DNA from: Bacteroidales bacterium
GTDB taxonomy: Bacteria > Bacteroidota > Bacteroidia > Bacteroidales > Bacteroidaceae
Reading direction: 5' to 3'
Length of the DNA: 64,000 nt
NCBI GenBank assembly: GCA_015060865.1
Contig: SUXS01000012.1
Span: 41,313 to 105,312 of the forward strand
Shown here one piece after another: positions 6,461 through 63,969 of this stretch. The notes beneath the pieces were generated by a model. The model was not told the DNA's origin. It searched no databases and saw nothing but the letters and a program-made list of their open reading frames with translations. The position numbers were made by a program, and so were the translations under genes. Positions within the stretch are counted from its first letter, which is position 1, and every line of letters starts with the position of its first letter.

Positions 6461-7711
6461 CTAAGAATACTCTCCTGGTGTTTTCTTGTAGTATAGGACG
6501 GAACAGTTCCTTTTCAGAAATACCTTATTGGCTACTTGCCTGACGTCGTGGCTTGTTATGGAGCAATAACGTGCCAGTTCTTCGTTGAGGTTGCTGTCCT
6601 GCCCGATAAGTTCCATTTGGGCGAGGTTGATGGCGCGGTTCAAGTAGTTGATATTGTTGAATGTACGTTCTGATTCTGAACGGTTGCGTACTTTGCTGAG
6701 TTCTTCGTCTGGTATAGATGTGCATTTCAGTACGCTCAATTCTTCCCATATGGCTTCCTCTGCCATTTCACAAGTGATGCCTTCGGCCAATCGGCCCATG
6801 ATGTAGAGCAGACCATTGTCAAGGCTGCCTTGTATATAGGCATCTATAGCAGTAAATATTTTAGTCTGATGCACCAAGTGTTGGATAAGTCGACTTGACT
6901 GCCCTGCGGCAAGGATATCAGTGATAAGGTCGCATACGTGATATCCTATATCTCTACGATTGGCCATATGGAAGGCCATCACCAGCATCTCTGACGGGAT
7001 GTCCCGGTATACGGTTTTTCGCCGTATGCGACTCTGTGCCGGTTCTGTTGCCCTCTCTTCCGTAACTTCGTCTCTCTTTTTCAGTATTGGCCCAAACCAC
7101 TTTTCACTAAGTGCCAGCACTTCATCGAAACCGATGTTGCCCACAACGGAAAGTATGGCATTGTCGGGGGTATAATGTCGGTTATAGAAGTCCATGATAT
7201 CGTTGAGTGTAGCCTGCTCAATATGCTCGGGGCAGATGCCTATTGTGGGCCAACGATAGGGGTGTACCTTGTATGCCATAGGCCGTATAAGGTGCTGTAT
7301 GTCACCATAGGGACGGTTGAGGTGGCGTTGCTTGAACTCCTCTATCACCACTCCTTTCTGCACCTCTACACTTTGTTCTGTAAGGGCGAGGCCGAGCATA
7401 CGGTCTGATTCTAACCAGAAGGCTGTCTCTATATTGCTTTTAGGTAGGGTGATGTAGTAATTGGTGAGGTCGTTGTTGGTCCAAGCGTTGTTCTCTCCTC
7501 CAGCGAATTGCACGTGGGCATCATAGTCGGGTATATTGACTGACCCCTCAAACATCAGATGCTCCATCAGATGTGCATATCCGGTGTGTTGAGGGTCTTC
7601 ATTGCGTGCCCCTACATTATACAGCAGATTTACAGCTACCATCTGAGTGGTTGTGTCTTCCTGATGTATGATACGTAGGCCGTTGGCGAGAACGTGGCGG
7701 TTTATGTTCAT
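6461..7711 (-). CDS. M16 (pitrilysin/insulinase) family peptidase
   Basis: HxxEH zinc motif (HLMEHLMFEGS). 416 aa. Confidence 0.85.
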   Translation of the reverse strand: MNINRHVLANGLRIIHQEDTTTQMVAVNLLYNVGARNEDPQHTGYAHLMEHLMFEGSVNIPDYDAHVQFAGGENNAWTNNDLTNYYITLPKSNIETAFWLESDRMLGLALTEQSVEVQKGVVIEEFKQRHLNRPYGDIQHLIRPMAYKVHPYRWPTIGICPEHIEQATLNDIMDFYNRHYTPDNAILSVVGNIGFDEVLALSEKWFGPILKKRDEVTEERATEPAQSRIRRKTVYRDIPSEMLVMAFHMANRRDIGYHVCDLITDILAAGQSSRLIQHLVHQTKIFTAIDAYIQGSLDNGLLYIMGRLAEGITCEMAEEAIWEELSVLKCTSIPDEELSKVRNRSESERTFNNINYLNRAINLAQMELIGQDSNLNEELARYCSITSHDVRQVANKVFLKRNCSVLYYKKTPGEYS

Positions 7712-8592
7712 TTTTCCGCAGGTTTTTCTATTTCTCTGACGCTTTTGATTATTACATCTTCGTATGGGCGTGCGTCTTTGTTTACTGCCCGATTCTCGAT
7801 TTTCATGACCACATCCATGCCGTCTATCACTTCGCCAAATACGGTGTAGTAGCCATCTAAGTCGGCAGCACCTCCGGTTGTCTTGTATAGGTTGCGTTGT
7901 TCCGCTGAATAGTGGAATTGCTTGCGCTTGGCCATCACTTTGTCAGTTTCTGCTGTGATGGCCTTTTTGATTTCGCGTATCTTGGGCATATGGCGTTTGG
8001 TGTCCTTGGCATATTCTTTCAGTTGCTTGCCGTATGGCTCTGTTTGTGTTATTGAGTCGAAAACTTCTTTTCTTAGGCGTTTGTTATAGGCGTCTTCTGC
8101 GTTGAATAGTTTCGTGTCAGAATATTTGAATCCGGTGACAATGTAAAAGTGTCCGCCAGATGATTTTTCCATCTTGTAATAGCTTGCCATGGCCAATGCT
8201 CCACGTTTATGGATGAACTTGTCCGGTTGTATCTCTTCAGGGATGGTATAGTCTACATCGTTGCCGCCCAGTGGAGTCTCCCGTGTGGCACCTTTTGATT
8301 TGGGGTCTCCGGCTTGTATGGCAAGTTTGTGCTGAATACGATAGAATAACTGGTTGTCGTAGTATCCTCTTCTGGCTAATTTCATGAAGTTGTGGCGATG
8401 CAAGGGCGTCTCGCGATATAATTTTAACGTGATGTTCCCTTCACTTGTTTCCATTAAGAGGTACTGGTCGGCGTCTACAATTATGGTGTCGGTATCTATG
8501 GACTCTGTGGTTGTAGACTCTTTGGGAGTGTTTTGGCAGGCTGTCAGTACGATGTGGCATAAGACAATCGCCATAAAAAGATGCTTCTTCAT
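7708..8592 (-). CDS. cyclophilin-type peptidyl-prolyl isomerase lipoprotein
   Basis: FYRIQHKLAIQAGDP and TVFGEVIDGMDVVMKIE. Lipobox MKKHLFMAIVLCHIVLTAC. 4-nt overlap with the downstream M16 gene. Confidence 0.85.
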   Translation of the reverse strand: MKKHLFMAIVLCHIVLTACQNTPKESTTTESIDTDTIIVDADQYLLMETSEGNITLKLYRETPLHRHNFMKLARRGYYDNQLFYRIQHKLAIQAGDPKSKGATRETPLGGNDVDYTIPEEIQPDKFIHKRGALAMASYYKMEKSSGGHFYIVTGFKYSDTKLFNAEDAYNKRLRKEVFDSITQTEPYGKQLKEYAKDTKRHMPKIREIKKAITAETDKVMAKRKQFHYSAEQRNLYKTTGGAADLDGYYTVFGEVIDGMDVVMKIENRAVNKDARPYEDVIIKSVREIEKPAEK

Positions 8593-16925: not shown

Positions 16926-16957
16926 CAAAATTAGTGCAAGCCCAACGAAAAATCAAA
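16926..16957 (-). promoter_or_regulatory. pyrBI promoter (-33 TTTG / -7 TAatTTTG)
   Basis: The plus strand shows CAAAatTA at 16926-16933 and CAAA at 16954-16957, 20 nt apart. Confidence 0.6.
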
Positions 16958-28648: not shown

Positions 28649-28680
28649 CAAAGATAGCGCAAGGCGAGCGAAATGCCAAA
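28649..28680 (-). promoter_or_regulatory. promoter of the mltD-like gene
   Basis: CAAAgaTA at 28649-28656 and CAAA at 28677-28680 on the plus strand, 20-nt spacer. Confidence 0.6.
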
Positions 28681-36060: not shown

Positions 36061-36092
36061 CAAAGTTAGTGCAAACCGAGCGAAATGCCAAA
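36061..36092 (-). promoter_or_regulatory. promoter with long leader for the 33565..35880 receptor gene
   Basis: CAAAgtTA at 36061-36068 and CAAA at 36089-36092, 20-nt spacer. Same cassette as at 28649. Confidence 0.55.
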
Positions 36093-40121: not shown

Positions 40122-40272
40122 AGTATATTTTCCGTAATGACAAATATATTTTACATTTTATCGCGCAAACTTTATATTTTTTCTCTTCCGAATAAGTGAA
40201 ATGGATAAGAGATGCAATATGATTTCTTCCGATAAAGACATCTTATTCTTTCTCTCTTTTGACATGTTTTCC

Positions 40273-40391
40273 TCACGCGAATCTCGCGAATCACGCGAAA
40301 ACATACATCGCTATCGCTTGTATGTGGCCATCCGGATGGCAAACGCGAGTGAAACAATGCGTTTTTCGCGTGATTCGCGAGATTCGCGTGA
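40273..40391. repeat. palindromic element PAL1: perfect 29-bp inverted arms of three 9-mers enclosing three small hairpins
   Basis: tcacgcgaa tctcgcgaa tcacgcgaa aa at 40273-40301 is the exact reverse complement of 40363-40391. The interior holds cataca..tgtatg, the perfect palindrome GCCATCCGGATGGC (40327-40340), and aacgc..gcgtt. Confidence 0.9.
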
Positions 40392-40506
40392 AACATAAAC
40401 AGCGTGAAACTCAAATGTTTTCATAATGTATCTTCTTAGAGCGGACAAGCAGAACACTTTCAGTCGATGGTACGGAAAGTTCTGCGCCGCTTCTCTAATT
40501 CTTCAA

Positions 40507-40586
40507 ATATCCACGGATATTTACTTACGTATCCATGGATATTTCATCACGTATCCGTGGATATTTCATTACGTATCCACGGTTAC
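40507..40586. repeat. array of four TATCC-RY-GGATA palindromes with exact 22-bp phasing
   Basis: Dyad centres at 40513/14, 40535/36, 40557/58 and 40579/80 (atatccacggatat, gtatccatggatat, gtatccgtggatat, gtatccacggttac). Confidence 0.85.
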
Positions 40587-40671
40587 GCAAGTTTTTCTAT
40601 ACTGAAAACTTGCTTTTCGGGCAAATATTTCGTAACTTTACGGAGTAAACAGCGAAACTATTCGATAAGGC

Positions 40672-40808
40672 TCACGCGAATCTCGCAAATCACGCAAAGA
40701 GCACGCGCATTCGCTTGTGCTTGCCATCCGGCGCGAACACTCGGCGGAATCGCCGACAAACGCGAGCGAAGCGATGCGTTCTTCGTGAGATTCGTGAGAT
40801 TTGTGTGA
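40672..40808. repeat. palindromic element PAL2 (9-mer arms, GCCATCCGG core)
   Basis: Arms 40672-40700 and 40780-40808 pair with 22 Watson-Crick pairs, 4 G-U pairs and 3 mismatches when read as plus-strand RNA. Confidence 0.85.
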
Positions 40809-41474: not shown

Positions 41475-42098
41475 ATGGCAAAATACATCAAACAAGAATT
41501 CAAGAGCATCAATGACGACAGTGAGAACAAGGCATACTATCGCATGGAGACGTCGCGTCGGGTGACGATGGCCGAGTTTGTTAAGGAAATCTCTATCCCG
41601 GGCTATGGCATCAGCGAGGCCACGGCAGTGCAGGTGCTCAGTCAGGCCGCCACATCGCTGGCCCGCCTCATGGCACACGGCTGCGCCGTGACGATTGACG
41701 GCATTGGCACCTTCAAGGCCACGATAGGCGTGTGCGAAGACAAGGAGCAGGATGCGTTTGTGGAGAACGAGCCGCAGCGCAATGCACAGAGCATCGAGGT
41801 GAACGGCGTGCACTACCGAGCCGACAAAGCGCTGGTGAAGGCCGTGCGCAGCCAATGCACGCTCGAGCGTGGCCAGCAGAGCCGCATCAAGCGCTCGCCC
41901 TACACGATGGAGGAGCGCATCAGTCGCGCCATTGCCTTCATCGAAGAGCACGGCTATATGCGCACTCGCGACTATGCTAATCTGAACGAGCTGTCCCTGT
42001 CGACCGCCACCGTGGAGCTACGCAAGGTGCGCAAGGAAGAGGCTTCGGGCATCCGCGCCATCGGGCGGGGAAGCAGCTTGGTTTATGTGAAGGGGTGA
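41475..42098 (+). CDS. HU_HIG-type histone-like DNA-binding protein with C-terminal winged-helix-like tail
   Basis: KAYYRMETSRRVTMAEFVKEIS..VQVLSQAATSLARLMAHGCAVTIDGIGTFKATIG. Confidence 0.7.
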   Translation: MAKYIKQEFKSINDDSENKAYYRMETSRRVTMAEFVKEISIPGYGISEATAVQVLSQAATSLARLMAHGCAVTIDGIGTFKATIGVCEDKEQDAFVENEPQRNAQSIEVNGVHYRADKALVKAVRSQCTLERGQQSRIKRSPYTMEERISRAIAFIEEHGYMRTRDYANLNELSLSTATVELRKVRKEEASGIRAIGRGSSLVYVKG

Positions 42099-42267
42099 GG
42101 AGAGGATTTCTCTACGAAGGCGCAAAGGAGCACTACATCCTCGACATCGAGCACAAGAGAGAGGCCGTGAAAGTGGTGCGAGCACTGGAGCAGGCCTTGC
42201 CTTATCCCAAACCAAAGAAAAAGAAGGGATAGAGGGGTAGCTGCGCTTACACCAAATGTAAATCTTC

Positions 42268-42367
42268 AAGGACAGCCCAAGGACAGCCCAGGCTGTCCTT
42301 GCTTATTTACTGACATTCTTTCGATTATGCCTTGTAAGGACAGCCGGACAGCCTATTCGGGAAAAAG
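42268..42367. repeat. GGCTGTCC composite repeat, copy 3 (inverted orientation)
   Basis: Hairpin caaggacagcc-caaggacagccc-aggctgtccttg, then ccttgtaaggacagccggacagcctattcgggaaaaag, which is the reverse complement of the copy 1/2 box. Confidence 0.75.
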
Positions 42368-42452
42368 TTGTTGCAGTCGTCAGAGAACACGTCCCGATAA
42401 TATATTTATGTCGAATACATAGATGGAGCTTTTTTGCAAGGCTTGCAGAGAT

Positions 42453-42483
42453 TTTGTTTATTTAAGCCGAATATTTATATTTG
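42453..42483 (+). promoter_or_regulatory. promoter of the three-gene AT-rich operon
   Basis: TTTG at 42453-42456, 19-nt spacer, TAtaTTTG at 42476-42483. ATG at 42506. Confidence 0.65.
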
Positions 42484-42505
42484 CAAAATAAAAAATCGTT
42501 TACCT

Positions 42506-43573
42506 ATGAGCAATTTAGATTCTGACATTATTCTATTTAGAAGTTCACTCCCATTTCATCCTAATGGGGAACAAGTGATTTATGTAGAGCCCGATTACGA
42601 TAAAGGTGTAAATGGTTTTATTCAAGATAACTACGACTGGCTTAATCGAGAAGTAGAGAACTTGGGATATGAGTTCTGCTATTTCCCGGCAATGTCAGAG
42701 AGATTTCATGGATGGCAGTATAGAAGGTATTATACTCCATATAATCCTCCACCAATAACACATATCGGAGGATGTGAGATTGAGCCCTATAAATTGGGAA
42801 GTGATTGCCTATCTTCCTACCTCAAGACAGATTGTACATTATCTCCTTCTTTTATTATATATGCCGATGACATAGTCTGCAGCGGATATTATGCTTTTAG
42901 GGTATTCAGGTTGGATGAAACCGGTGAATTGAAATCCCAACTCTCATTATTCTTCCAACACTTTAGTACATTAAGAAAGAAGCATTCAGACCGTTTACGT
43001 GCAATTCGTTACAGTATTACAGGAGAAATAGAGTCGTATCCAGATAACGAAATTGCAGATAGAGATTTTCCGCAGGAAGCTGAAAAACTAATGGAAGATG
43101 TACGTGAACAAATAATGCAACTGAGAGCGTATGGTGTGAATGAAATGGTGCTAAATTCTCTTTTGAATCCTCGACCACGTTTGAGTACAATGGTTATTTC
43201 TGCCGAAGGTCGTATCACTTTGCCAGGATATCAAAATCGGGAAATTAAGATGACACCATTGGTGAAAGCTGTATATTTCTTGTTTCTCCGCCACCCCGAA
43301 GGTATTGTGTTCAAAAACTTGCCCGATTATCGGGAAGAATTGTTGATGATATACAAGAAACTTACGGGACGCGTATCTGATGAGGATGTATTACGCAGCA
43401 TTGAAGATGTGACAAATCCTTGCAGGAATTCGATTAACGAAAAATGCGCAAGAATACGAGAAGCTTTCATACGAGAGTTTGATGACCGCATAGCGAGATT
43501 TTATTATATAACGGGGAGCCGTGCTACAGCAAAAAAGATAGTGTTGCCCCAAGATTGCGTGATTTGGCAATGA
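42506..43573 (+). CDS. hypothetical protein A (355 aa), C-terminal helical HTH-like module
   Basis: First ATG behind the promoter. No family recognised. The C-terminus MTPLVKAVYFLFLRHPEGIVFKNLPDYREELLMIYKKLTG resembles LuxR/sigma-region-4-type helices. Confidence 0.7.
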   Translation: MSNLDSDIILFRSSLPFHPNGEQVIYVEPDYDKGVNGFIQDNYDWLNREVENLGYEFCYFPAMSERFHGWQYRRYYTPYNPPPITHIGGCEIEPYKLGSDCLSSYLKTDCTLSPSFIIYADDIVCSGYYAFRVFRLDETGELKSQLSLFFQHFSTLRKKHSDRLRAIRYSITGEIESYPDNEIADRDFPQEAEKLMEDVREQIMQLRAYGVNEMVLNSLLNPRPRLSTMVISAEGRITLPGYQNREIKMTPLVKAVYFLFLRHPEGIVFKNLPDYREELLMIYKKLTGRVSDEDVLRSIEDVTNPCRNSINEKCARIREAFIREFDDRIARFYYITGSRATAKKIVLPQDCVIWQ

Positions 43574-43648
43574 AAATATAAACAGCCCCATAACTATAAC
43601 GTAAAAGTGGATAGTTATGATATATATAATTTAACCATAAGTAAGACG

Positions 43649-45313
43649 ATGATTGCAGATAAAAGGCTTTTTACATTAATGATAAAATATCATTCAGTTA
43701 TAGTAAAAAGATTGATAGAAAAGAAACTTGTGTATAAAGGGGTGGATAAACTTAATGTTGTCAATCAGACTGTTCTCGATTCTGACTCCAATTATTGTCC
43801 TTTTGAAATTGTTAAAGTAGACGAAAATAATGTAACAAGAATTATTGCGCGTACTTGCGAAATAGAATGGTTGAACAAGTTTATATTAATAGACACAAAC
43901 AATCCTACAATCTTTAAAAAACTTAGAGGAAAAGTTTTTCGAAGTAATTATGATAATATCAGATATCATTATTGCATGCCTTCATGTTTGGACTACCTTT
44001 TAGAAGAGCATTATCAGGATATATCTTATATAAAGTTTCCAAAACGACACAATGTACTTGTCAAAGGGAATTTAATTCCCAATTATTTTAAAATCATTCA
44101 GAGACAAATTGAAAAAATTATAGAATTTCGAGATAATGGAAAGAATATAGAGAATTTATCTTATCAAATAGTCTTGTATAACTATAAAGGATATTCCTAT
44201 CATGATAGGAAATGGTTAGAAACTATTGAGAAATATAGAGAGTTTGCATATTTACCACTTTATTCAGATTTAGATTGGACTTTGGACTTAGTGGAAACAT
44301 ACAAGGATAAGATAATTTGGAAGAGGTTAATTGAAGAATCCAATTTACAATGGACTGAAGAAATGGTTGGACTATATAACGATTATATACCATATAAAGA
44401 GTTGGAAACATTCAAGGCTTTTGACACGATGAGTAACAAATTTATAGATATCCATATGAATGTCTTGAATTGGAAGGCATTTCTTAGAACCTGTAAATTT
44501 GAATGGAATTCATCTGATTTGAAACATTTTTACTATATCGTTGACCGAAAATCTTTCTTTTTTGACGCTTTAGTTAACAACGAGCAATTTATCTGGAATG
44601 CTGATTTGCTCAAAACAGCAATAGAATTAGATCCCTATTTTTTGTCTTGTTGCATCAAGAAAAAAGAGTTATCTGATATACTGTTCCAAATCCCTAATTA
44701 TGTGGATTTGGTGCAAAGAGTTTCGAATGATCCATTTATCTTTCTTAAACTTAAGGATGGAGGAGAAAAACCTTATAATACATATAGTGAATATTTTACT
44801 ATTGATTTCATGAAAAAATATCACAAGAAATGGGAGGAGGTGGTAGAAAAAAAGTATGATGGCATGCAAAGAACACCTGATACTAACTATCATTTCTATA
44901 AGGTTTATAATAGATGGGACTATTTTATGTATAATAACTCTATCCGTCTTACATATGAGATTAGTAAATATTTGTATTCAATTACTATAACATTGGGCGG
45001 TGCTTATACGCTATTGGACGATGGCTCATATATGGAAGAGGATGAACGAAATCCAAAAGTTAATGGATTAGAGGCTTTTAATATGCTTGGAATTGCCAGT
45101 AGTGAAGATTTGGTGAAGATTTGCAATGATGATGATTTAATTGAGATATTCTTAAATGGAAAACAGGGATTCAATACTGAGATTACTGACTATTTGATTG
45201 AAATTTTCTTTTCGGATTACTCTTTAGATGATTATTTGAACATAATAAATCAACTAAAAGATTGGGATAACATTGTAAAGGATAAACAATATCCAGCAAG
45301 GAAATGGTGGTAG
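43649..45313 (+). CDS. hypothetical protein B (about 555 aa), Trp-rich tandem repeats
   Basis: Long, very AT-rich ORF (alternative GTG start at 43607). Recurring W-x(13-16)-W modules such as DWTLDLVETYKDKIIWKRLIEESNLQWTEEMVGLY. Confidence 0.7.
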   Translation: MIADKRLFTLMIKYHSVIVKRLIEKKLVYKGVDKLNVVNQTVLDSDSNYCPFEIVKVDENNVTRIIARTCEIEWLNKFILIDTNNPTIFKKLRGKVFRSNYDNIRYHYCMPSCLDYLLEEHYQDISYIKFPKRHNVLVKGNLIPNYFKIIQRQIEKIIEFRDNGKNIENLSYQIVLYNYKGYSYHDRKWLETIEKYREFAYLPLYSDLDWTLDLVETYKDKIIWKRLIEESNLQWTEEMVGLYNDYIPYKELETFKAFDTMSNKFIDIHMNVLNWKAFLRTCKFEWNSSDLKHFYYIVDRKSFFFDALVNNEQFIWNADLLKTAIELDPYFLSCCIKKKELSDILFQIPNYVDLVQRVSNDPFIFLKLKDGGEKPYNTYSEYFTIDFMKKYHKKWEEVVEKKYDGMQRTPDTNYHFYKVYNRWDYFMYNNSIRLTYEISKYLYSITITLGGAYTLLDDGSYMEEDERNPKVNGLEAFNMLGIASSEDLVKICNDDDLIEIFLNGKQGFNTEITDYLIEIFFSDYSLDDYLNIINQLKDWDNIVKDKQYPARKWW

Positions 45314-45314
45314 T

Positions 45315-46160
45315 ATGGCAATTGATGGAAATTTAGCAAATCAGATGAAAAAAGAAGAATTAGGGGTATACGCAAACAATGAGAGTTTTAGGAAGATAGC
45401 CGAAAAGTTATATGCCGAAATTAGTTTGGCTCGAAAAGTCCTTTCTATGCATAAGCCATCAATTGGATATTGGGGAGAATCTATACTTCGGGACTTTCTT
45501 CGGCATCATCTTTCCTCCAATGTAAGAGTCACTTCAGGTTTTATATTCCATAAAGACAATGTAGATAGTGAGGAAATTAAATCACATCAATGTGACATCA
45601 TTATTTATGATGTCAATTATACACCAATTCATTCATTTGGCGAGATTGAGGTAATACCATCTTGTGCTGTTATTGCTGTAATAGAGGTGAAAAGTTCTAT
45701 TAAGCGAAAGACATTTGAAAAAACACTCTCAGATTTTGATCTGCTTGGGCAGATGGGGATAAGGAACAAATACATTTTTGTATTCTCTTCTCCTAGTCCT
45801 AAAACTATTAAATCCTATTTTTTTGATAAAGTTAATTCTGAAAATGGACTTCTAGTGGCAGATAGTCTTAACTATAAATATAACCATGGAAGTTTTGAAA
45901 CACTTCCTACTGCAATCGTTTCCTTAAGTTCTGATTTCTTGTTGTGTCAAGATTATATTGAAGGAAATAGAGATATGTACGGATATGCGGCATATACTTT
46001 TACGTATCCGACTGAGAGTACAATTGCGAGCCTTCAATTATTTTGGGGAATGATTGTAAACGATTGCACTACGAATCTGCAAGATAGCAATTATGATGAA
46101 TCCGAAATATGCTTTGATGAATTAAAAGTATTATACGAATTTGGATTATGGGATTTATGA
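45315..46160 (+). CDS. hypothetical protein C (281 aa), PD-(D/E)xK-like nuclease candidate
   Basis: One-base gap after gene B. GESILRDFLRHHL .. QCDIIIYD .. AVIAVIEVKSS gives the order E / D / E-x-K. Confidence 0.7.
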   Translation: MAIDGNLANQMKKEELGVYANNESFRKIAEKLYAEISLARKVLSMHKPSIGYWGESILRDFLRHHLSSNVRVTSGFIFHKDNVDSEEIKSHQCDIIIYDVNYTPIHSFGEIEVIPSCAVIAVIEVKSSIKRKTFEKTLSDFDLLGQMGIRNKYIFVFSSPSPKTIKSYFFDKVNSENGLLVADSLNYKYNHGSFETLPTAIVSLSSDFLLCQDYIEGNRDMYGYAAYTFTYPTESTIASLQLFWGMIVNDCTTNLQDSNYDESEICFDELKVLYEFGLWDL

Positions 46161-46266
46161 GAACTTATGCCACATTGCCTGTTTCTTACAAGAAAACGGG
46201 TGGTTTACTTTGTTATTTATTCGGTAATCATTATTTTTGCAACAACGAATGTAAAGTGACTTGTAT

Positions 46267-46575
46267 ATGAACACTGCAACGAGAGAAAACATCATCCCCA
46301 AGTTGAGGGCCTATTTTGCTACTCAACCTATTGAGAGGGCTTGGCTGTTTGGATCCTTCTCGCGAGGCGAGGAGACCGAGACCAGCGATGTGGATATACT
46401 GGTCGACTTTGACAAGGGCGCTCGCATAGGATTGTTCAAGTATGCAGGCATCTATGGTGACTTGAAAGAACTGCTAGGGCGTGATGTGGATTTGGTGAAG
46501 AATGGCTCGCTAAAACCATTTGCTGTAGATAGCGCAAACCACGATAAAATACTTATCTATGAGAGAGCGAATTAA
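46267..46575 (+). CDS. mntA: MntA-type nucleotidyltransferase antitoxin
   Basis: GSFSRGEETETSDVDILVDF (GSx2RG..DxD). Confidence 0.85.
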   Translation: MNTATRENIIPKLRAYFATQPIERAWLFGSFSRGEETETSDVDILVDFDKGARIGLFKYAGIYGDLKELLGRDVDLVKNGSLKPFAVDSANHDKILIYERAN

Positions 46576-46909
46576 AGACCGCACCAGATTGCTCCATATG
46601 CTGGAAGGCATTGACAATATCATGGAGTTTAAGGAAGGAGTTGACTTTGAAACATTTGCCAACAACAAATTGCTTAAGTTCGGCATATTCTACAATGTAA
46701 CAATCATTGGTGAAGCTGCCTACAAGTTGACGAAAGAGTTTATCGCTTCTCATCCCGATGTGCCCTGGCGTGACATAATCAATATGCGCCACGTCTTAGT
46801 ACACGGGTACTATCAGATTGACCCTGAGATATTATGGGAGACGGTGAACAATGATCTTGTAGAACTCAAGACTGCACTACTCCGCTATTTGAAAGAAGAA
46901 GATTTATAA
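46559..46909 (+). CDS. hepT: HepT-type (DUF86) RNase toxin
   Basis: Rx4HxY motif RHVLVHGY. 17-nt overlap with mntA. Confidence 0.85.
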   Translation: MRERIKDRTRLLHMLEGIDNIMEFKEGVDFETFANNKLLKFGIFYNVTIIGEAAYKLTKEFIASHPDVPWRDIINMRHVLVHGYYQIDPEILWETVNNDLVELKTALLRYLKEEDL

Positions 46910-46914
46910 TAGTT

Positions 46915-46946
46915 GCGGTGGACACTCATCCACCGCTTCTTTTTTG
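46915..46946 (+). terminator. intrinsic terminator after hepT
   Basis: gcggtgga-cactca-tccaccgc followed by ttctttttt. Confidence 0.75.
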
Positions 46947-47182
46947 CATTTCCGAAGCTGCAAGCGCTTTGAACGATAGAAAACAGAATCTATTCATGGA
47001 AAATTCATGGCCAATTTACGGCAATTCATGTTCACGAAAGAGAAAGAATTGGGGAATCCTTGCAATCTTCTCGCCCAATCCCCAAGGCGAGTGAAAAGAA
47101 CGCAGCCATGAGCGATTAGGAAAAAACAAGAAGCAAGAGAAAACTCAGTTTTTGAGTTAATAAGTTTTTCTCATTCGCACAG

Positions 47183-63937: not shown

Positions 63938-63969
63938 CAAAGTTATAGCAAAAGCCTTGAAGAGCCAAA
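63938..63969 (-). promoter_or_regulatory. prfA promoter
   Basis: CAAAgtTA at 63938-63945 and CAAA at 63966-63969, 20-nt spacer. Confidence 0.55.

Follow-up and report, generated by a model that had tools for sequence, protein, structure and literature searches.

We analysed a 64,000-nucleotide (nt) stretch of a Bacteroidales metagenome-assembled genome (contig SUXS01000012.1; hereafter, the window) and focused on a block of three adjacent genes (hereafter, A, B and C), all of which are annotated as 'hypothetical' in the source genome. The three co-directional open reading frames (ORFs) are present on the forward strand where a first-pass annotation, made from the sequence letters, had placed them: A at 42506-43573 (355 amino acids, aa), B at 43649-45313 (554 aa) and C at 45315-46160 (281 aa), with ATG starts backed by family alignments. 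A belongs to a large unannotated Bacteroidales family and is a probable local transcription factor, B is a rare repeat protein without a known fold, and C belongs among the DUF6602/NucC-like PD-(D/E)xK endonucleases.

A Bacteroidetes-type promoter (42453-42483, forward strand) precedes A, with a -33 box TTTG (42453-42456), a 19-nt spacer and a -7 box TAtaTTTG (42476-42483), matching the earlier reading letter for letter, and it is conserved upstream of A in two related loci (L013 and L103, described below). The window contains 12 copies of TTTG-N17-21-TAnnTTTG, compared with 1.1 expected from shuffled sequences (none of 100 shuffles reached 12); one copy lies 5' of A and another (46209-46239) 5' of the downstream MntA gene, and the scan of the window found none between A and B or before C. 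A scan for terminator-like hairpins likewise detected none between the genes of the block, the sole forward-strand match inside it (44066-44080) falling in the B coding sequence. Without a promoter motif between A and B or a terminator-like hairpin between the genes, A, B and C most simply read as one operon. B and C are one base apart (tgg tag t atg), as first reported, and with this 1-nt gap B is probably translated together with C.

The block had been judged by eye to be far more AT-rich than its flanks, and the computed profile agrees: at a GC content of 0.333 it is the lowest 3.65-kb stretch of the window (mean 0.481, standard deviation 0.049), and the GC content at third codon positions is 0.26-0.34 in A, B and C vs 0.50-0.78 in the flanking genes. 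The wider claim that it sits in a ~19-kb accessory stretch was not borne out, as composition deviates in A-B-C only (mildly in the adjoining MntA/HepT pair) and all 24 assemblies read that have an identical ParB share the same arrangement.

The same block was found elsewhere. By blastn, window positions 42430-46160 (forward strand; operator, promoter, A, B and C) align with L013/L014 at 81% identity, ending at the C stop codon, and L103 has the same left edge, aligning over 42430-43577 at 74% and 43620-46163 at 84%. The flanks differ by context, with an HU-HIG gene and MntA/HepT in the window, DUF1016 and 200/141-aa proteins in L013, and DUF4304 and an HU-HIG gene in L103. These alignments show the candidate operator, promoter and three genes moving as one sharply bounded block into three genomic contexts. 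Horizontal acquisition, first suggested from base composition, is thus supported both by the foreign composition and by the same bounded block in three unrelated contexts. No integrase or transposase flanks the cassette in the loci examined.

The nuclease-like protein C and the repeat protein B

C had been counted among unassignable proteins, and it falls in Pfam family PF20247 (DUF6602), the domain of the single-gene system Damona, with an E value of 4.3e-19 and 68.8 bits (gathering cut-off 27) over residues 46-140. It matched the PADLOC models PD_DExK (1.6e-22) and NucC (7.8e-16), and a direct sequence search against solved NucC structures returned 1.8e-6. The family profile of C matched NucC in the Protein Data Bank (PDB entry 6uxf, 5e-15) in the N-terminal catalytic half only, the alignment covering ~105 N-terminal residues and ending at about residue 122 of 265.

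NucC (PDB 6p7o, 6uxf, 7zgv) is a CD-NTase-associated or type III CRISPR accessory endonuclease, a homotrimer that hexamerises on ligand binding. Its cyclic tri-AMP (cA3) pocket is formed by R53, Y81 and T226/V227, and its gate loop latches through H136 and Y141. The nuclease core of C (45378-45734, forward strand, aa 22-140) is like that of NucC in being restriction-endonuclease-like: its motif C-D94-x29-E124-V-K126 aligns with the NucC motif IDx30EAK (D73, E104 and K in the Ec/Pa NucC), with the catalytic residues encoded at 45594-45596 (D94), 45684-45686 (E124) and 45690-45692 (K126). D94, E124, V125, K126 and E55 are invariant in 21 members of the C subfamily, and the PD-(D/E)xK-like motif order suspected from the letters is real. 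In contrast, profile comparison allowed no alignment of C with the C-terminal half of NucC, where the gate loop lies together with some of the cA3 pocket, including the T226 region. The equivalent of Y81 (Y102) is present in the window protein and varies across the subfamily, and the column equivalent to R53 is not conserved.

C has no signal peptide. No CD-NTase or Cas10 was found among the Pfam-annotated genes within +/-10 kb (L001/L107), the nearest nucleotidyltransferase being MntA, which is paired with HepT; unlike NucC, C has a repeat protein as its partner. Membership of C in a cyclic-oligonucleotide-based anti-phage signalling system (CBASS) or a type III CRISPR system was considered and rejected, given that no cyclase or Cas10 is nearby and the ligand-pocket positions that could be aligned are not conserved. 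From the motif and family matches we strongly infer that C is the effector of the operon and actively cuts DNA as a Mg-dependent PD-(D/E)xK endonuclease of the NucC/DUF6602 kind. The role of nuclease effector first proposed for it fits this membership of a defence-linked family.

The C subfamily is small, with 25 clusters that all carry PF20247 (25/25), and its members were never solitary: in every sampled context a partner gene lies at most 34 nt away. Five independent cassette types were distinguished, three with A-B, one with a kinase-leucine-rich repeat (LRR) protein and one with a pair of 195-aa and 272-aa proteins. The spacing between B and C is +1 nt in the window, +31 nt in L013 and -11 nt (an overlap) in L103. 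In the kinase-LRR type (L115-L118), a kinase + LRR_5 protein (944 or 1013 aa as called) ends 12 nt upstream of a DUF6602 nuclease 50% identical to C, and DarT, two genes without assignment and a Schlafen/AlbA_2 protein follow 3' of the nuclease; this is another apparent pairing of a repeat sensor with DUF6602, within a dense defence island. The remaining type has the order 195-aa/DUF6602/272-aa, often with an HU-HIG gene upstream, as in the window. The 195-aa, 272-aa and kinase-LRR partners have no relation to A or B.

Damona itself is an anti-phage system reported from Vibrio integron cassettes and made up of one DUF6602 gene (bioRxiv 10.1101/2024.07.02.601686). C shares with it the DUF6602 domain and also the PADLOC/CBASS-nuclease cross-matches that its description mentions. 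As far as the published description allows a comparison, Damona is a stand-alone gene whereas C is the last gene of an operon, coupled to B, in a subfamily always accompanied by a partner.

For A and B, the earlier statement that neither could be placed in a named family stands: neither had a match in Pfam, PADLOC, NCBIfam, PHROG or the PDB sequences, PDB profile searches yielded no significant match for either, no family of the PADLOC-DB v2 models was hit at E<=1, and Foldseek gave no significant PDB match. Relatives of B form 13 clusters among 5.8 billion proteins, and an exhaustive hidden Markov model search gave 63 representatives at E<1e-30. There was no PDB profile match to B, and its confident AlphaFold2 model (pLDDT 83.6) had no Foldseek match in the PDB below E 0.3. 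Similarity to nucleotidyltransferases, cyclases or TIR domains was absent by Pfam, PADLOC, Foldseek against the PDB and PDB profiles, and B has no Walker A motif.

Two regions of B stand out. The central Trp-repeat region (44204-44758, forward strand, aa ~186-370) is built on a ~24-aa unit, LSxNxxLPWSxELIEKYKDKWDW, and profile positions ~200-300 match 4-8 stretches in many otherwise unrelated repeat proteins, some of them fused to ankyrin repeats or to an RNase_T exonuclease. In the BFVD database the model of B had only borderline matches, to viral Trp-repeat proteins: Gp563 of phage G (E 1.1e-3) and a 'tryptophan repeat' protein of an entomopoxvirus (E 0.04). The 'Trp-rich repeats' noted at first sight are a true Trp repeat, but the Trp content is modest, with 13 W in 554 aa (2.3%), seven of them within residues 189-316. 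The C-terminal domain (44759-45283, forward strand, aa ~371-545) is the most conserved part, with the highest identity among the B domains (91-93% inside the A-B-C clade and 29-48% outside) and a cluster of invariant, largely polar residues (R408, T409, D411, T412, N413, Y414, W423, D424, K440, G450, G451, D458, E464, D465, R467 and N472). It also stands as a separate module in shorter proteins.

Thirteen independent contexts of B relatives were gathered. The A-B-C order occupies three chromosomal settings (the window, L013/L014 and L103). In L012 a divergent A precedes B and SIR2 follows it, and in L104/L105 B lies between a NusG-like gene and SIR2. Elsewhere B is found between a helix-turn-helix (HTH)-HKD/Snf2 fragment and an S24 peptidase (L009), after an FRG/PDC-S15 gene (6e-103; L019), after a PD-T4-6/mad6-like kinase (L016), and with a 123/125-aa protein between housekeeping genes (L015 and L017). 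A 116-aa ORF without assignment lies upstream of B in L106, where the contig is too short downstream, and the contexts in L018 and L011 are cut by contig ends. The fragment in L009 is a 438-aa ORF (6661-7977) just 5' of the B relative, flanked by the HTH_3 and S24 peptidase genes; it matches only the first ~257 of 948 positions of the PADLOC model 'HKD+Snf2' (2e-20), together with the start of SNF2/ResIII domains, and is a helicase-nuclease that is either truncated or of a distinct short form.

The SIR2 partners of B (L012 and L104) matched PADLOC SIR2 and Aga_SIR2 at 1e-13, with visible GAG, HG and GxGxxD motifs, and were below threshold against Pfam SIR2_2 (7-9e-4). They are 43% identical to each other and their B proteins 37-44%, so B and SIR2 have co-diverged. 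That B is found with a nuclease in some loci and with SIR2 in others argues most strongly for its acting with an effector. The view of B as a repeat protein holds, and defence effectors adjoin its relatives. No effector-linked domain variation was evident, the B of L104 (with SIR2) and that of L015 (without) being 62-72% identical in every domain. B genes have a GC content of 0.28-0.33 at every locus, whatever the GC content of the locus. Neither the 50,697 phage records nor the 72,556 plasmid records searched by tblastn contained a match to B, and IMG/VR had none.

Protein A and its candidate operator

The family of A comprises more than 2,587 homologous clusters and has no Pfam model (nothing at E<=1). 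The C-terminal domain (43190-43570, forward strand, aa ~229-355) is the most conserved part of A, with the invariant residues clustering at 239-343. For the AlphaFold2 model (pLDDT 85.5), the best Foldseek matches in the PDB were to the ToxR DNA-binding domain, and these were weak (E 0.5, probability 0.66-0.69, TMt 0.49-0.55). An hhalign comparison with verified PhoB/OmpR domains aligned the expected helices, also at a weak E of 0.11. These matches weakly suggest an OmpR/ToxR-like winged helix.

A palindrome, TGCAAG-G-CTTGCA (42435-42447), marks the left edge of the conserved cassette and is a candidate operator of A. In the form TGCAAG(G/C)CTTGCA it has a single copy in the window and is kept 5' of A in L013 (5465), L103 (224) and L123 (6927). 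Among 77 non-redundant A-family loci (625 kb), 13 contain the palindrome, with 14 exact copies that all lie either within 171 nt of the A start (5) or just past the A stop (9). There was no copy in 203 kb of non-A control loci. With one mismatch allowed, 20 of the 22 copies in A-family loci are beside A. Of 28 distinct sites, 13 are followed by a -7 box TAnnTTTG that starts exactly 28 nt past the palindrome and two more by one that starts at 29 nt, compared with a background chance of 0.8% for TAnnTTTG at 24-36 nt; the sites are often without a recognisable -33 TTTG. In L012, where the A homologue is divergent from B, a symmetric variant of the palindrome is located in the A/B intergenic region. 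Because the family-linked palindrome stands at a fixed 28 nt before the -7 box, we infer with good support that A is a local transcription factor that would bind TGCAAGGCTTGCA as its own operator. More generally, the palindrome has the appearance of an operator that serves a large, undescribed family of Bacteroidales regulators (>2,500 clusters, without a Pfam model).

A is like the OmpR/PhoB/ToxR winged-helix proteins and the regulators of defence loci (BrxR, CapW, RptR) in its conserved C-terminal domain, whose best (weak) fold match is ToxR, and in the promoter-proximal palindrome at fixed spacing, as expected for such regulators if A binds it. It is unlike them in falling below every Pfam threshold (Trans_reg_C was not detected), in having no receiver or WYL domain and in belonging to a large family with mostly non-defence cargo.

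We sampled 83 A-family loci with 95 A copies (85 loci counting L123/L124), and none of the 95 copies is next to B or C; A and C each also occur apart from the other two genes. The neighbours are varied and include Endonuclease_NS, TPR, DnaB_C- and UvrD-like helicases, DUF1848, DUF6717, RhuM and others. The nearest A relative outside the A-B-C clade (56% identical) precedes an AT-rich 823-aa protein that has no relation to A or B. A dedicated defence subunit was therefore rejected as a description of A, as no sampled copy adjoins B or C and few neighbours match PADLOC. Of the 'accessory or regulatory subunit' in the first-pass annotation, the regulatory half is the better option, since a family of more than 2,500 clusters with mostly non-defence neighbours points to a local regulator.

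Within the A family, a recurrent three-gene arrangement was observed in 17 of the 83 loci. It consists of a ~228-250-aa protein with a weak MotB_plug match, an Endonuclease_NS protein (~290 aa) and a long-form A (~470 aa), with overlapping stop and start codons, and some of the long-form A proteins have an N-terminal DUF6804. Tandem arrays of 2-4 A paralogues were also found (L054, L079 and L100).

Possible function of the cassette

Weighing these observations, we read the block at 42430-46160 as a self-contained cassette acquired horizontally, and we see about an even chance that it works against phages or mobile elements with A as regulator, B as partner and C as effector along the whole chain. 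A would bind the palindrome, which spans about -41 to -53, directly 5' of the -33 box and at the fixed 28 nt from the -7 box, and would control transcription of its own A-B-C operon; its N-terminal domain could receive a signal. B, with moderate support, would be the specificity or control partner of C, its repeat region and conserved C-terminal domain either recognising an infection cue or holding C inactive, and the same scaffold may work with an NAD-depleting SIR2 effector in other lineages. C would be the DNase effector, activated probably by protein contact rather than by cyclic tri-AMP, because no CD-NTase or Cas10 is nearby.

The cassette is most likely an unnamed defence module that joins one known effector family with two undescribed partners. 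It is neither CBASS nor type III CRISPR, and it is not simply Damona, since C does not stand alone. What is known is the effector family of C, and candidate systems of the kind that pair a sensor or partner with an effector are numerous; what appears to be new is the fold of B, its alternation between effectors and the operator of the A family. The anti-phage or anti-mobile-element system proposed in the first-pass annotation is in this form partly retained: the effector family of C, the acquired block and the repeat protein B agree with it, whereas C belongs to a named family, the synteny is narrow and A is not dedicated to the system.

The logic proposed for B has parallels in short prokaryotic Argonaute systems (SPARSA/SPARDA), DSR2 and Avs/NLR-like proteins, where one conserved non-catalytic or repeat partner goes with a nuclease or a SIR2 NADase. 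Unlike these, B has no similarity to Argonaute, APAZ, a STAND NTPase or HEAT-type repeats, lacks a Walker A motif and matches no fold in the PDB. Its effectors are encoded by genes of their own, and B also occurs alone. If the proposal is right, it would add a new defence module to the Bacteroidales, a gut and rumen lineage with a poorly mapped immune repertoire, and would widen the known ways of switching on NucC-type nucleases to include a protein partner of unknown fold in place of a cyclic-oligonucleotide synthase. The alternation of B between nuclease and SIR2 partners offers a ready comparative test. The A family and its palindrome, which keeps a rigid spacing to the -7 box, would be a testable new architecture of local regulator and promoter in Bacteroidales, and could serve annotation and the engineering of inducible promoters.

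Several points weigh against this proposal. The defence role is read from sequence and context, and neither A nor B has detectable relatives of known mechanism. The DNA-binding fold of A is weakly matched (the Foldseek E of 0.5 and hhalign E of 0.11 given above), and its family's neighbours are mostly non-defence genes, with ~6 of 73 matching PADLOC candidates (3 PDC-S05 and 3 PDC-S23). Recurrence of the three-gene order in other genomes had been proposed as a check, and the order does recur in three unrelated contexts but only within one close clade, in which B is at least 76% identical; beyond it, B goes with SIR2, with other genes or alone, and C with the kinase-LRR protein or the 195-aa/272-aa pair. 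B relatives that are ~70% mutually identical (L104, L015, L016 and L017) are followed by SIR2, by the 123/125-aa protein or by nothing, and B is in this sense not tied to one partner. As the conserved DNA in this clade is the B ORF alone, B can be autonomous. DUF6602 is reportedly able to act alone (bioRxiv 10.1101/2024.07.02.601686), so C may not need B. Variability of the locus had also been proposed as a check and was not found among strains: all 24 assemblies read that have the identical ParB keep the island, without presence/absence polymorphism.

Many of these points would also fit three independent modules captured together once, with C a self-sufficient Damona-like nuclease, B an autonomous mobile gene (possibly its own single-gene defence with the C-terminal domain as effector) and A an unrelated regulator. 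This explanation, the main rival, draws on the single-gene nature of Damona, on the movement of B as a single ORF in the clade just described (alone between housekeeping genes in L015 and L017), on the occurrence of A and C each without the other two, and on the narrow A-B-C synteny. It sits poorly with the 1-nt, overlapping and 31-nt B-C junctions of the window, L103 and L013, with the missing promoter motif before B or C, with sampled C-subfamily genes that are never solitary, and with B-SIR2 pairs that co-diverged in two distant B lineages, and we hold it to be unlikely, though far from negligible.

The tight coupling of B to a potentially toxic, nonspecific nuclease, next to another toxin-antitoxin pair (MntA/HepT) and retained in all near-identical assemblies, could alternatively indicate an addiction pair that stabilises an element or island, with C as the toxin, B as its inhibitor and phage defence not the selected function. 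At 554 aa, repeat-rich and mobile without C, B differs from typical antitoxins; in other loci it adjoins effectors and candidates of defence type, and no integrase or transposase flanks the cassette in the examined loci. We regard an addiction pair as improbable.

A bolder form of the proposal that A, B and C make up a defence cassette would have B found a new class of infection sensors or signal generators with a novel fold. Its conserved C-terminal domain would make or pass on a signal that turns on interchangeable effectors (a NucC-like nuclease in the window, a SIR2 NADase elsewhere), no CD-NTase, Cas10 or TIR synthase being involved, and a new, very large Bacteroidales transcription factor family with a fixed-geometry operator would gate the unit as a whole; we consider this decidedly improbable. 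Defence SIR2 proteins such as ThsA of Thoeris are, like NucC, second-messenger-activated effectors. A related idea, that the C-terminal domain of B is a new enzyme making a small-molecule signal on infection that allosterically activates the NucC-like nuclease or SIR2, as in CBASS or Thoeris with a different synthase, gains from the classic second-messenger control of both effector types, from the dense invariant polar cluster in this domain, which suggests catalysis or ligand binding, and from its occurrence as a separable module. Against it, the match of C to NucC is confined to the N-terminal catalytic half and leaves the gate-loop region unaligned, the cA3-contacting R53 and Y81 have no conserved equivalents in the C subfamily, and B has no detectable similarity to a nucleotidyltransferase, cyclase or TIR domain; the idea is very improbable. 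Scarcely credible is a role unrelated to defence, with the cassette an acquired nuclease operon for DNA processing or nutrient scavenging that a local regulator controls. In its favour, A-family regulators are often beside Endonuclease_NS genes and other non-defence cargo, but C has no signal peptide and belongs to a NucC/DUF6602 clade known only from defence contexts, and the neighbours of B and C relatives are of defence type (SIR2, DarT, Schlafen, PDC-S15 and kinases).

Flanking genes and other elements of the window

The MntA/HepT pair (46261-46909) was correctly recognised directly downstream of C, as confirmed by Pfam matches (NTP_transf_2 1.9e-15 and HepT-like 1.1e-24); the two genes overlap by 17 nt and carry the PADLOC label PDC-S09. 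It is a type VII toxin-antitoxin system, a neighbour often seen in defence islands, and here lies outside the conserved block, with unrelated genes in its place after the cassette in L013 and L103. The pair has its own promoter (46209-46239), and a terminator-like hairpin (46915-46936) follows HepT. As terminator-like hairpins lie before the block and after HepT, and the pair is outside the conserved block with its own promoter, it is a separate toxin-antitoxin unit; inclusion in the system was rejected.

On the left of the operon, the repeat/hairpin module described earlier is real, with four direct and one inverted copies of GGACAGCC/GGCTGTCC. Within 42267-42354, outside the conserved cassette, GGACAGCC copies form a hairpin with a 10-bp stem (42278-42301) followed by a T-rich tail, which is probably the terminator of the HU-HIG gene; the direct GGACAGCC copies at 42338-42353 are not explained by the hairpin. 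HU-HIG genes are recurrent beside DUF6602 cassettes, being located before A-B-C in the window (41475-42098), after A-B-C in L103 (5973-6449) and before the 195-aa/DUF6602/272-aa cassette in L119 (4215-4850), L121 and L122. These HU proteins are not closely related by BLAST, and their genes may mark an integration hotspot.

An 88-nt non-coding element at 47056-47143 is 82% identical to L013 10344-10431. In both loci it lies just 3' of the two small genes that follow A-B-C (MntA/HepT in the window, the 200/141-aa genes in L013), and it contains a CTCGCC...GGCGAG hairpin and has no Rfam match; it could mark where a larger insertion ends on the right, or else represent a small RNA or a repeat element. 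For RNA genes in general, Rfam returned sub-threshold matches only across 40-48 kb. These include Cyano-2 (E 0.018), the only match to a ~650-bp densely structured non-coding stretch (40263-40808) 5' of a PDDEXK_3 gene. This stretch contains a perfect 29-nt inverted repeat (40273-40301 / 40363-40391), tandem units of 9 nt (TCACGCGAA/TCTCGCGAA), a further three to four tandem units of 22 nt (40496-40583), and inverted arms of 60 nt with 280 nt between them.

Finally, four of the 12 promoter matches in the window (16926-16957, 28649-28680, 36061-36092 and 63938-63969, all on the reverse strand) share an extended stretch of similar sequence (TTTGGCATTTCGCTCG..TTGCRCTAWCTTTG), which suggests a repeated promoter module or a set of co-regulated genes.

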